Shown here one piece after another: positions 1,794 through 7,024 of a stretch of 64,000 nt of DNA. Origin of the DNA: Rhizodiscina lignyota (Eukaryota); NCBI GenBank assembly GCA_010015805.1, contig ML978140.1:310001-374000 (forward strand), given 5' to 3'. The position numbers and the translations under genes were made by a program. The notes below the pieces were generated by a model. The model was not told the DNA's origin and ran no database searches. It saw only the letters and a program-made list of their open reading frames with translations. Position 1 is the stretch's first letter. Every line of letters begins with the position of its first letter.

Positions 1794-3644
1794 TCAATGG
1801 CCTGAACGTAGCAACTCTTTCACCGAAGCACTCTCCTCAAACCTTAATCCCTCTTTGATATCATGGCGGTAGTCCATCTTACAGTCGTCATCTGCCCAGT
1901 CCATAATCTCAGACGCCTTGCGGTTCGGGCACCGCTCTGCCATCATATCTGCAAAGTCTCGCATCAGTTGCGTGCCGCCGCCGATCTCCTCATCGCTGGC
2001 GCAGCATGAGGCATCCTTTAGCCAGCCTTTGTCATGGCATAAGCAGTCCCATACTCCCTTTTGGGTTTTCTGTTCGTGGCAGCTGTTGTGGTACCAGTAC
2101 TCCCTCGCACATACCTTCATCACCACAGGCATATCGGAGAAGTCGGGGTTGACGCCTCCTGTGTCCATTCGACGCTGTTTCGGCCCGGTCGGAACAAACT
2201 TCTCACCATAGAAGATCCCCAATTTCTCTGCGATGTCCCCGGCATAGTCGTTGTAGCACTCGTCATCCCCCCACACTATAATATCCGTCGCCTTGCGATC
2301 CCCGCACTTCTCTTCCATCATGTCTGCGAACTGTCGGGTCAGTTCCTGACTGCCACCGAGTTTCACATCGCTGGCACAGCACGCGGTATCCCTCAGCCAG
2401 CCTTTGTCGTCACATATACATCTAGCGACTGCGTGCGGTGTCGCCTGTTTATGGCAGCCATTGTGCGTCCAGTATGTGAATGCGCATTCCCTCATGACAT
2501 CGGGCATATCGCTAAAGTCGGGATCCTTACCGAGGGTCACTCCTGGGGTGCTGCCGGGCGCCTTGTATCGAGGCCGTAAGCGAATAGTGCCTGGGGTACT
2601 GCTCTCCGCCCTTTTCTCATAAGGCTGCAACTCGGTAGTGCCTGGGGTACTGCTGAGCGGCAATCCTCGAGGCGCTATTCGGTGCTCCGTAGGCGGCGCA
2701 GGAGGCGCATATCCAGTTAGCTCTCTCAGCTGTTTTCTGAGTGCTGGAATTTCCTTCATGTCCCACCAGATATTTTGGCACTTGCCGGCATCGCTTCCCC
2801 AGTCGTATAAATCCCCGTACGCCCGGTTCGGGCATTTTTCTGACATCATTTTTGCGTACGCCGCGACAGCGGAATCGGTCATGAGGAAACCGCGCGTGGT
2901 GCCAGCGGTCTTTACGGTGCCGCTGAGTGCGGAGTCGCAGCACCCGGTATCCTTTACCCAGCCCTTGTCGTGGCACATGCACTCCCACAGCTCCTCCTGA
3001 TCGTGCGATTTATGACAGCCGTTGTGGATCCAGTAATTTTCCCCGCATATCCTTGCCCTCGTTGGCATCCAGCTCAAGTCAGGGTGAATGCCTTTCGTAC
3101 TACTTCGCCGCAGTATGTAGCGTTCGAAGGCCGAATCTGAGGGTCGCATGACGCTGCCAGAATCGGAAGTGGCACTTTCCTTCGACGCTAGACGCTGTTG
3201 TTCTGGTTCCTCAGGCGGCACATGTTCATCTTGCAGCGCCAGCTTATAGCTGACCTCATCCCGATGGCGGCCCTCACATCGAAAGTGCGCCCAATCCAGC
3301 ATCATGGGCGTGTAGCCAGCGTGGTTCGGGCAGCGGTCGATGAACGTCTTTGCCAGTTCCAGAACCTCTTGGTCGCCGCCGCCGGGAAGGTGGGGCGAGC
3401 CGACGCAGCAGGACATGTCGCGCAAGAAGCCCTTGTCTTCACAGAGGCACTTCCACACATCGTCCTGCGACTGCTGCTCGTGGCAGGCGTTGTGCTTCCA
3501 GACCACGGGGCCGCATGTTGATGCTAGCTTTGAGAAGCCAGGGAACTCTGGTTGGAGGCCGTCAGTGTTTCCGCCGAAGCCGTCATCGGCGGAGACGAGG
3601 GTTGAGGATGTGGTGATGAGGAAGACGGTTTTGAGGAGCTTCAT
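1794..3644 (-). CDS. Secreted 616-aa cysteine-rich protein with four 8-Cys repeats separated by dibasic sites (CFEM-like / effector-like polyprotein)
   Basis: Intronless ORF with a signal peptide (MKLLKTVFLITTSSTLVSA|DD). Four repeats C-x9-C-x11-CxC-x10-CC-x23/34-C-x15/17-C. Linkers contain LRR, EKR and QRR. Confidence 0.85.
   Translation of the reverse strand: MKLLKTVFLITTSSTLVSADDGFGGNTDGLQPEFPGFSKLASTCGPVVWKHNACHEQQSQDDVWKCLCEDKGFLRDMSCCVGSPHLPGGGDQEVLELAKTFIDRCPNHAGYTPMMLDWAHFRCEGRHRDEVSYKLALQDEHVPPEEPEQQRLASKESATSDSGSVMRPSDSAFERYILRRSSTKGIHPDLSWMPTRARICGENYWIHNGCHKSHDQEELWECMCHDKGWVKDTGCCDSALSGTVKTAGTTRGFLMTDSAVAAYAKMMSEKCPNRAYGDLYDWGSDAGKCQNIWWDMKEIPALRKQLRELTGYAPPAPPTEHRIAPRGLPLSSTPGTTELQPYEKRAESSTPGTIRLRPRYKAPGSTPGVTLGKDPDFSDMPDVMRECAFTYWTHNGCHKQATPHAVARCICDDKGWLRDTACCASDVKLGGSQELTRQFADMMEEKCGDRKATDIIVWGDDECYNDYAGDIAEKLGIFYGEKFVPTGPKQRRMDTGGVNPDFSDMPVVMKVCAREYWYHNSCHEQKTQKGVWDCLCHDKGWLKDASCCASDEEIGGGTQLMRDFADMMAERCPNRKASEIMDWADDDCKMDYRHDIKEGLRFEESASVKELLRSGH
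2541..2654. repeat. Short intragenic direct repeat encoding (S/G)STPG(T/V) three times
   Basis: tagtgcctggggtactgct is exact at 2585-2603 and 2636-2654; a third, degenerate copy cctggggtgctgc starts at 2542. Confidence 0.8.
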
Positions 3645-4199: not shown

Positions 4200-5460
4200 G
4201 CTAAATGCAAACGTACTGACGAAGAAGGCGATTAAGGGAAAGAGATCGCGGGCAGAATTCGATGGGCAATACTGGAGAAGACCTCAAGTACTCTACGTAA
4301 CACGCACGTAAATGGCTTGCAGTCAGAGCTTGCATATTTTAGGAACCAGAGGTTCGAAAGAACCAAGTTACAGGAGTCCTAACGTAGAGAGGCAAGAGTC
4401 GTGTCCAGACGCTATAGTAGAGTATAGAGAGGGTAAATGTTATTTTCCCACGGGGCCTAGGTGATGATTGATGCGAGTTGTGCCGTGGAGGGTATTCGAA
4501 TCACGGTGGGATCGAGTTCAAGGGTAGGTATTGTCATAGAGTAGGTCAAGCACCTTGCTAAGGGGGTAACGAAATAGTTGAAAATGACTAATCGAAACGC
4601 GGCAGTATGAACAAGTCTTATTCTTCAATACGGATGAGAGTGTCTCTGAAAGCTCGATTTGGTATACACTAGGCCGTATTTACCTAAGATACGCATACTT
4701 AGTGTATGTAATATATATTGACTACCGAGGATATGCATCCTCCCGGTTTGATATGTTATATCGACGACTTAACCTTTCTGTCACCCACTTTGCCTCCTTG
4801 GTGCTGTGGTCGGGCCGAGCATGTCGGCCGAGTCGAGAACCTTCACTCAAAGGTGTCCTTAGTAGAACAAGCGCGTATGTGAATAGCGTGCTTGAGAGCG
4901 TGCCATTCAAGCGCTTATTTGAGTATTAAGGGTGCCATCATGTGAAGACGTACAGCTTTGTGGTTTTGAATAAAACAAGAGATTTAGGTTGGATGGCAAC
5001 GGGCTGCCCAAGTCATTCACGGGATATCAGAGGAGTGCCAGATGTAGGATAACAGATATGTCTACTCATTGGTGAGCTACCTATCCATTAAAGGCGCTCT
5101 GCTATCGTATCCAAATGCCACCATCGTCGTCCTAGTCCCACTGATAGCATTGGAGAAGATAACGAAGAGAAACGAGGATTTATATTCGTGTATAATCTTT
5201 ACACGTTCTTCACGCGTTTATAATAAACAAAAGCGGAGTTCGGGGTCCTTACTATATGAAGTAAGCGCATTCTTAATATAGCACCTCCTAGTACTAGATA
5301 AGAATGATATAATCCAATTAGGCCAGGATATAGATCACGTGATATTCTTTATGGAGAATAGAGAATGAAGAAAGTCTTTTCGATTGCTTAACTAGAGAAA
5401 GCTACCTAAGTAGCCTTCTCTGTGCAGAATTCTCTGCATAACCTAATGCCTCTTATCCAA
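4200..5460. other. AT-rich, TpA-rich intergenic tract, possibly a RIP-degraded repeat relic
   Basis: Visibly lower GC than the flanking genes, many TA/TAG/TAA words and no credible ORF. Judged by eye; RIP indices were not computed. Confidence 0.4.
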
Positions 5461-5477: not shown

Positions 5478-7024
5478 TTAGTCCTCATCCTCATCCTCAT
5501 CCTCATCCTCACTCTCGTACTCAGCGTGCGGCGCTTCATCGTCGCCCTCCAGCCTGCCCTTCTTCGGAGTCATCATGTAACGCTCCCTGCTGTTCTTGAA
5601 GGACGCTTCAACTGTCCTTCCACCGAAGTGACGGCCGTTGAACTGCTCAACGCACTTGGCAGCAGCCTGAGCGCTCTCGAACCTGACGGTGACAACGCCC
5701 GCCTTCTCTCGGTCCCACACCACGACTCCCTCGACCTTACCCAGCTTCGCGCACTCATCGCGGATGTCGGCCTTGATGTCCTTGCGCGCTGTTGGATCAT
5801 GCTGTGGCATACGTTAGTATGCATCTTGAAGCTTGTAGGTAGAACTCATACCTCGAGCTCCTCGAGCGTGAACATGTGCTTGAGGACGACGATTGTTGTC
5901 CAGACCCTGGCGCCTCGCTCAGCCGGCATGTCATCGTCGTCGTCCCAGTCGGCCAGCTTGTTGTTCATCTTCTCTCTGACCTCTTTAAGCTTCCACGAGG
6001 GCAGCATCTGCTTCTTGCCACCTGCTCCGTCAAGCCCCTTCATCTTCGTAGGGTCCTTGTTCACCTTGTAGCTCCAATCTGCCTCCTTGACTTGCATCTT
6101 GCCCATTGGGCCTGCTTCTCCAAGACGGAAGTCGGTCTCGTCCAGCATCTGGATGGCGAGCTGAACGCTCTCCGGGCGGAAGTAGACGACGAGTGCCTCA
6201 CCCTTTGACTTGCCATCATCATCGGTGTAGATCTTGATACGTGGAGTGGTGTCACCGGTGCGTGGGTCGATTGACTTTGCGACGAGGCCGTACTTGGAGA
6301 AGACATTGTGGATATCGTCGACGTCAGCATCGAGCGGGAGCGACGTGACGTAGACAGCAGTATTCTGAGCCTCCGTCTTAGGTCCAGACTGGTCCGTACG
6401 CGCCTTCTTGGCTTGGTTCTTGCCGCCTTTCTTACCACCCTGCTCGTCGTGATACTTGTGCTTTGCCGCCTTCTTCTCTTTCTGATCCTCAGGCTCCTAC
6501 ATGAAATTGAGTATGTTCTGACGTATTAAACTTGAAGATGCAACTCACGGCACTGCGCTTGCGCTTCTTTGGTGGCTCCGAGGCACCGAACACTTCGCCG
6601 CTCTCATCAAGTTGGCCGACAGCACGAGCGTTAGCTCCGCCTTGTTGCCTCGAGGCACCAACCCGTCCGACGCTCTCATAACCGGCAGCAAGGGCGTCCA
6701 TTTCGATTTCATGTTCGATCTTTTCTGGGATATCCTCCTGTAAGACCGAGAGAAGATCCGGTGGTTAGAAAAAGCCAGGATACGACATTTGATGCCTTAA
6801 GTTCAAGTGACCGCTCTCAAACGAGAGAATCACCACCGATCGATTAGAGGGCATACCGATATGGTCCAGCTCTTCTTTGCATCGTCCCACACCCATTCCT
6901 CGCCATCCTCATCCTCCAGGTGGAATTTGCCATCTACCATGGATTGACTGACGCGAAAGTCATCATTGAACTCTTCCTTCGTGCGCGGGAAGGGAGCAAC
7001 GCCCTCCTCCGCCAAGCTCGACAT
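5478..7024 (-). CDS. CUS2: U2 snRNP-associated splicing factor of the Cus2/Tat-SF1/Uap2 family (RRM + UHM)
   Basis: ATG at 7024; introns about 6738-6856, 6497-6548 and one near 5800-5850. RRM1 NTAVYVTSLPLD..PRIKIYTDDDGKSKGEALVVYFRPESVQLAIQMLDET, then KLADWDDDD, IVVLKHMFTLEEL and DIRDECAKLGKV..FNGRHFGGR, with an acidic ED tail. Confidence 0.9.

Follow-up and report, generated by a model that had tools for sequence, protein, structure and literature searches.

A putative Kex2-cleaved precursor of four rewired CFEM-derived domains in Rhizodiscina lignyota

The window analysed here, a 64,000-nucleotide stretch of Rhizodiscina lignyota contig ML978140.1 (assembly GCA_010015805.1, positions 310,001 to 374,000), contains near its beginning the gene of a precursor, P0001, in which four homologous repeats (D1 to D4) are separated by long linkers (Table 1). 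The adjoining genes encode proteins with Peptidase_M49, RRM and ammonium-transporter domains, in keeping with the placement of the gene amid housekeeping genes in the original prediction; the spacers on either side, described there as AT-rich, are indeed lower in GC than the gene, but only modestly so (47% and 44% versus 57%). A dispersed repeat of about 230 bp (window ~4560-4795), with at least 39 other matches in the genome at 67-83% identity (40 of 48 candidates scored), probably represents one end of a transposon that is decayed or non-autonomous. On the plus strand at ~5090-5160, a short helicase-like stretch, which we take to resemble helicase motif Ia of the RecQ/DEAD type, lies among stop codons. 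Of all 255 windows of 500 bp, those at 1251 and 4251 score highest on the RIP-like index, and the gene is therefore placed among transposon remnants.

Table 1. Features of the P0001 gene (positions in the window) and three further CFEM loci (positions in each locus); arrows mark putative cuts.
Feature	Position	Strand	Remarks
Gene for P0001, 616-aa precursor	1794..3644	minus	single exon; one open frame, GC3 0.67
Putative signal peptide, aa 1-19 (VSA↓DD)	3588..3644	minus	hydropathy; cleavage site inferred
Repeat D1, aa 29-123	3276..3560	minus	probably CFEM-derived; 8 Cys
ILRR↓SS, P1 Arg180	3105..3110	minus	linker 1; aliphatic P4; 8 residues before D2 lead Pro
Repeat D2, aa 185-289	2778..3092	minus	11-residue insertion between C6 and C8
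Linker-2 internal repeat	2535..2654	minus	51-nt period; two full and one partial S/T-P-G unit
YEKR↓AE, P1 Arg345	2610-2615	minus	linker 2; 30 residues before D3 Pro, out of register
Repeat D3, aa 372-463	2256..2531	minus	matched by CFEM paralogue P0002, E 9.4e-5
KQRR↓MD, P1 Arg492	2169..2174	minus	linker 3; 8 residues before D4 lead Pro
Repeat D4, aa 497-588	1881..2156	minus	Pfam CFEM E 0.0075, 16.7 bits
Polar C-terminal tail	1797..1880	minus	GPI, TM and HDEL-type signals absent (sequence, hydropathy)
P0002	L002 1471-1860	minus	intronless; single-domain; without haem Asp
P0003	L003 1498-1851	minus	intronless; single-domain; without haem Asp
P0004	L010		ten-Cys CFEM; Ser-rich stalk; GPI-type tail

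The amino acid sequence of P0001 is identical in NCBI, UniRef and nr, where it forms a one-member cluster, and a contig re-assembled from sequencing run X1 (possibly the same sample) has zero differences within the gene. A search of sequencing runs found the gene in one run, with no RNA run among the matches listed. Outside the gene, at window position 5481, the RRM gene differs in length between the window and the X1 contig: within a TCCTCA tandem repeat at its acidic 3' end, the contig has an insertion of 12 nt, a difference in two-codon units.

The predicted signal peptide is plausible but weak, the N-terminus being only slightly hydrophobic (best Kyte-Doolittle mean 1.14). Beyond the N-terminus there is no hydrophobic stretch (best 19-residue mean 0.42), and P0001 is therefore considered to have neither a transmembrane segment nor a GPI tail, as had been proposed. 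It contains zero N-glycosylation sequons.

The four repeats lie where they had been predicted and cover 384 of the 616 residues. The 32 Cys of P0001 fall in four blocks with the spacing C-9-C-11-C-1-C-10-C-C-(23 to 34)-C-(15 to 17)-C, and 21 columns are invariant, including W-x-H-N-x-C-H, C-x-C-x-D-K-G, D-x-x-C-C and a late Trp; every motif listed in the original prediction was found in all four repeats. The domain cores carry a net negative charge (-4 to -7). Pairwise identity among the repeats is 29-56%, and dN/dS is 0.30-0.56 in all six pairs, figures that are rough because dS (1.2-2.6) is near saturation. The repeats are old duplications kept under purifying selection. An assembly artefact or a pseudogene is rejected in view of the identical X1 contig and these dN/dS values.

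P0001 stays below the Pfam CFEM (PF05730) gathering cut-off of 22 bits, with 13.5 bits for the whole protein and 16.7 for the best repeat, D4; searched singly, three of the four repeats gave no CFEM match. A Pfam EPF match on D1 (E 0.008) was rejected as a match of Cys pattern. A search of the genome with P0001 returned two other proteins, both small and single-domain with signal-like N-termini, and both labelled CFEM proteins in UniRef: P0002 (129 aa), whose 22.3 bits lie above the Pfam CFEM cut-off, and P0003 (117 aa, 20.4 bits). These two and the four-repeat gene make up a three-gene subfamily, whose members have in common a P-D/N-F lead-in and a tail ending in W-G. An HMM built from the repeats only ranks P0002 (33.9 bits) and P0003 (26.4 bits) first and second among 59 targets, scores that were reached by none of 1000 full shuffles and none of 1000 shuffles with Cys held fixed. 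P0002 as query matches only itself, P0003, D3 and D4 in the genome. In a tree of 15 rows, with no branch starred and with long branches meeting, the repeats and the paralogues are joined at 91/97 and P0003 adjoins the repeats at 84/89. The repeat profile matches ten canonical CFEM stretches weakly (E 0.035, probability 1.5); with the paralogues added, the match reaches E 0.001 and probability 21.

The reciprocal matches thus point to homology of the repeats with a bona fide CFEM member, P0002, and the repeats very probably derive from CFEM by way of this small subfamily of the same genome. They are filed as CFEM-derived rather than as canonical CFEM because their scores, Cys spacing and haem-ligand position (see below) all depart from those of the family. 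The domains had been described as novel-looking and not CFEM; they appear instead to be divergent CFEM derivatives linked to the family through a Pfam-positive paralogue. That they belong to a new eight-Cys fold family with a convergent likeness to CFEM is very unlikely: the repeats do fall outside the CFEM consensus and the Pfam cut-off, and they match canonical CFEM weakly when profiles or folds are compared directly, but the strong reciprocal similarity to P0002 goes beyond the Cys pattern (as the Cys-fixed decoys indicate), the C2-x9-C3 and C5-x11-C6 spacings are the same as in P0002, P0003 and P0004, and the Cys missing from the repeats constitute a known disulfide pair.

The CFEM consensus is given as PxC[A/G]x2Cx8-12Cx1-3[x/T]Dx2-5CxCx9-14Cx3-4Cx15-16C (PMC13586796). 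Both this strict pattern and its Cys-only form fail on P0001, bearing out the earlier remark that the Cys spacing is not canonical; the Cys-only form passes P0002 and P0004, and the strict form none of the four proteins checked. P0002 has canonical spacing (3, 9, 10, 1, 11, 4, 15). The repeats keep six of the eight consensus Cys in register (C2, C3, C4-x-C5, C6 and C8), including the spacings C2-x9-C3, C4-x-C5 and C5-x11-C6, but they lack C1 and C7 and have one extra Cys directly before C6 and another 15-17 residues after C8. Compared with canonical CFEM, the repeats also have a longer C3-C4 loop (11 residues versus 6 in P0004) and a C-terminal extension with an invariant Trp. P0003, with six Cys, likewise lacks C1 and C7. 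In MaCFEM85 the predicted pairing is C1-C7, C2-C6, C3-C4 and C5-C8, the C1-C7 bond being C26-C69 (PMC9967070), and MbCFEM10 is reported without both C1 and C7 (PMC9684206). Loss of the C1/C7 pair, together with the acquisition of a different pair of Cys, accounts for the odd spacing of the repeats.

In P0004, too, C6 is directly preceded by an extra Cys, which forms a CC as in the repeats, and a further one lies 12 residues after C8; these comparable places suggest that the two extra Cys of the repeats, that of the CC and the last one, bond together. Unlike the repeats, P0004 retains C1, C7 and the haem-ligand Asp, and it has one domain and a GPI-type tail. Ten Cys are also reported for VdSCP77 (PMC8867779). 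P0004 is not joined to the repeats in the tree, and the extra pair may therefore be convergent; its inheritance from a ten-Cys subtype was considered and is unsupported by the 15 rows.

The haem ligand of CFEM proteins is an Asp (Asp80 of Csa2), required for haem binding in Rbt5 and Pga7 (PMC13586796, PMC4183699). At the corresponding position, three residues before CxC, the four repeats have Val, Leu, Val and Val, whereas nine of ten canonical CFEM stretches of the same genome have Asp. Canonical haem binding by the repeats, originally proposed as possible haem or metal binders through their paired His, is unlikely because this ligand is missing from all four. The invariant WxHNxCH is new to the repeats: both His are present in 4/4 and absent from P0002 and P0003, and the fold that they share with these paralogues is therefore independent of the His pair.

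An AlphaFold2 model of D4 from a six-row alignment is all-helical, with seven helices (pLDDT 93). Compared with 48,161 chains, it matches Csa2 (4y7s_A) over model residues 1-93 at rank 6 (Z 4.7, rmsd 3.5, 83 residues aligned). DnaA domain IV entries and DnaG occupy the five places above Csa2 (Z 4.9-5.8). The likeness to DnaA domain IV (Z 5.8), at 6% identity and with no known correspondence of Cys, was put down to a common helical arrangement. Foldseek of the same model on PDB and on viral models returned nothing at E 0.001, and re-alignment of its PDB matches gave a best Z of 3.2, with Csa2 not among the matches listed. The D4 model is compatible with a modified CFEM basket, short of proof. 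A single-sequence model of the full-length precursor is of low confidence (pLDDT 44) and gives only a rough layout of helix and coil.

One dibasic site per linker had been predicted, and exactly three [KR]R sites are present, one in each linker, versus zero among the 384 domain residues, which hold 16 Arg. RK pairs at 303, 450 and 575, two of them within domains and all unmentioned in the original prediction, are discounted as Kex2 sites because Kex2 requires Arg at P1; it cuts exposed KR/RR in flexible linkers (PMC8528282). The linkers (33-82 aa) are disorder-prone, linker 2 being rich in Pro, Ser and Thr. A site in every linker together with none in the domains has P 0.002 under shuffling of the whole mature protein and 0.021 under shuffling segment by segment; a site in all three linkers, taken alone, has P 0.027 and 0.11, respectively. 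The equal 8-residue register of the sites in linkers 1 and 3 has P 0.004, calculated post hoc. With the extended motif of PMC8528282 added, the sites number six, all of them in linkers (joint pattern P 0.0013 for the whole shuffle and 0.022 per segment), but six or more such sites arise in the Arg-rich linkers with P 0.11 under the per-segment shuffle. One of the six is LRPR↓YK, which lies with YEKR↓AE inside the internal repeat of linker 2. A single kexin gene, encoding S8 and P domains, is present in the genome. Cleavage in silico after KR/RR gives four fragments of 161, 165, 147 and 124 aa (18.0, 18.5, 16.3 and 14.2 kDa), each with eight Cys.

The polyprotein nature originally ascribed to P0001 is thus moderately supported by linker-only sites, two of them in register, by disorder-prone linkers and by the presence of a kexin, the cleavage itself being putative. 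From this pattern, Kex2 probably cuts the precursor into four soluble proteins. The opposing possibility is an unprocessed beads-on-a-string protein, resembling the multi-CFEM Wap1/Csa1 of Candida but unanchored and acting by avidity, in which the dibasic sites would be by-products of Arg-rich linkers. It has a precedent in the four-CFEM Wap1, made by domain duplication (PMC4530338), and it accords with the length of the linkers, the stalk-like composition of linker 2 and the 11% of per-segment shuffles that place a site in all three linkers. Set against it are the complete exclusion of [KR]R from domains containing 16 Arg, the equal register of two sites despite their differing flanks, and the targeting by Kex2 of exposed KR/RR in flexible linkers (PMC8528282), so that an unprocessed P0001 is considered unlikely.

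The preferred explanation is that of CFEM-like folded repeats released by Kex2, to which, both steps taken jointly, we assign a probability of about 0.52. P0001 would be a lineage-restricted secreted precursor that arose when a divergent CFEM domain was duplicated in tandem long ago. Each repeat would adopt a CFEM-like, all-helical basket, kept together by C2-C6, C3-C4 and C5-C8 bonds and by an additional new bond from the extra Cys of CC to the last Cys. Kex2 in the late Golgi would then cut after Arg180, Arg345 and Arg492, releasing four soluble proteins of ~14-18 kDa in equal amounts.

What the released domains may do is a more tentative matter. They would bind no haem in the manner of Csa2; a transition-metal ion might instead be chelated by His-x3-His and nearby invariant Asp residues, and the acidic domains might serve as diffusible metal scavengers against competing microbes. 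This suggestion builds on the descent of the fold, on the invariance of two Asp and of His-x3-His, and on earlier cases in which CFEM proteins sequester iron or act against microbes (PMC11481751, PMC12975806), and it may well be wrong. The complete scheme, a Kex2-cut CFEM polyprotein in which a His metal site replaces the Asp-haem site and one disulfide has moved, is doubtful. If true, it would mean that one transcript supplies a four-way metal-scavenging cassette, and it would be an instance of proteolytic activation within the CFEM family.

Release by Kex2 may equally yield domains that are metal-free, with WxHNxCH and DKGW serving structure or the binding of protein, lipid or cell wall, and with products that are antimicrobial, surface-active or wall-associated. 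CFEM proteins without the Asp have been reported in non-iron roles (PMC8867779), a purified CFEM protein is antimicrobial (PMC12975806), and in the D4 model His-x3-His straddles a helix break, so that the two His do not lie on one continuous helix. The conservation of both His in 4/4 repeats, and their absence from two paralogues whose shared fold needs neither, speaks against metal-free domains, as does the net acidity of the domain cores. Typical antimicrobial proteins are cationic, the opposite of these cores. Metal-free products are, on balance, a somewhat unlikely outcome.

Effectors or toxins, also raised originally, are most improbable as products of P0001, whether directed at a plant or at another host. 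Secreted CFEM proteins are effectors in plant pathogens (PMC13586796, PMC8867779). The flanks of the gene, with their transposon remnants and raised RIP-like indices, would suit such a role, but the gene itself sits between housekeeping genes and zero toxin similarity appeared in any search. Moreover, R. lignyota is a wood-dwelling saprotroph.

Each component of this organization has known counterparts. Like Csa2 of Candida albicans (PDB 4Y7S) and other type I secreted CFEM proteins, the predicted products are small, all-helical, disulfide-held and extracellular. In contrast to P0001, which is unanchored and has Kex2-type sites between its domains, Wap1/Csa1 of C. albicans is GPI-anchored. Both have four tandem CFEM-type domains produced by internal duplication, but those of Wap1 are 83-100% identical (PMC4530338), far above the 29-56% of the P0001 repeats.

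Kex2-processed repeat proteins (KEPs; Le Marquer 2019, PMC6339444; Umemura 2020, PMC7329392) resemble P0001 in having a signal peptide (putative in P0001) and at least three similar units with KR/RR between them, but where KEP units are peptides, those of P0001 would be folded domains with four disulfides each, carried on fragments of 124-165 aa; 9-24 aa is the commonest class of KEP unit, with motifs of up to 352 aa reported (PMC6339444, PMC7329392). Le Marquer 2019 defines KEPs by a signal peptide, no transmembrane segment, at least four KR/RR fragments of which at least three are similar, and repeats exceeding 15% of the length (PMC6339444). P0001 gives four fragments with one repeat in each, by our own alignment rather than the FIMO pipeline, and its hydropathy of at most 0.42 outside the N-terminus agrees with the absence of a transmembrane segment. 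It lies beyond the limit of Umemura 2020, which is repeats of at most 100 aa between KR/KK/RK/RR (PMC7329392): with RK counted, the domain-bearing fragments are 161, 124, 106 and 84 aa. Nine of the 7878 KEP rows in Umemura Table S2 carry a CFEM profile (PMC7329392); because the table lists these rows but no sequences, a CFEM-repeat KEP may already be present there, uncommented. The term CFEM is absent from four supplement files of PMC6339444. P0001 also differs from K2PP effectors (Outram 2021), whose N-terminal pro-domain terminates at a Kex2 motif, in that D1 follows the putative signal peptide without any such site before it.

Searches for relatives outside the genome came back empty: full-length P0001 matched only itself among 6713 candidates, and of the 96 candidates for a six-row profile only the two own-genome paralogues matched. 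At E 0.001, 1.84 billion representatives contained no match to the repeat profile other than itself. A sequence search of PDB returned nothing for P0001 and two chance matches for alignment A2, and the ESM Atlas gave zero usable matches. In control searches, a canonical CFEM exon found its own protein alone among 2 candidates, and a canonical CFEM query missed Csa2 in PDB at E 10. The precursor is likely to be rare outside its source genome, a rarity that is not established because these controls indicate low search sensitivity for the CFEM family.

Precedents exist for tandem CFEMs and for Kex2-processed repeat proteins separately; their combination is apparently undescribed, no case having been found in a literature search that covered subscription journals thinly. 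The available text of a CFEM review leaves Kex2 unmentioned and treats cleavage of CFEM effectors as an open question (PMC13586796), for which this gene, with three predicted cut sites, offers a clean test, within the scope of one genome and of two ingredients (tandem CFEM and KEP) that both have precedents. If P0001 is cut, the units of Kex2-processed repeat proteins would include folded domains with four disulfides as well as peptides. The series from P0002 (eight canonical Cys) through P0003 (six) to the repeats (six plus two new) represents CFEM rewiring within one genome. A CFEM domain has here apparently been rewired past detection by Pfam, and counts of CFEM proteins may therefore miss others of this kind.

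P0001 differs from dikaritin/ustiloxin-type RiPP precursors in its units of ~95 aa and in its location, for none of the 76 UstYa/DUF3328 matches of the genome is on the contig of the gene; KEPs differ from P0001 in the same respect, a DUF3328 gene being absent from its contig. The 76 matches, which are exon-level and not gene counts, are distributed over many contigs and often clustered, which suggests that the genome is rich in RiPP-type clusters.
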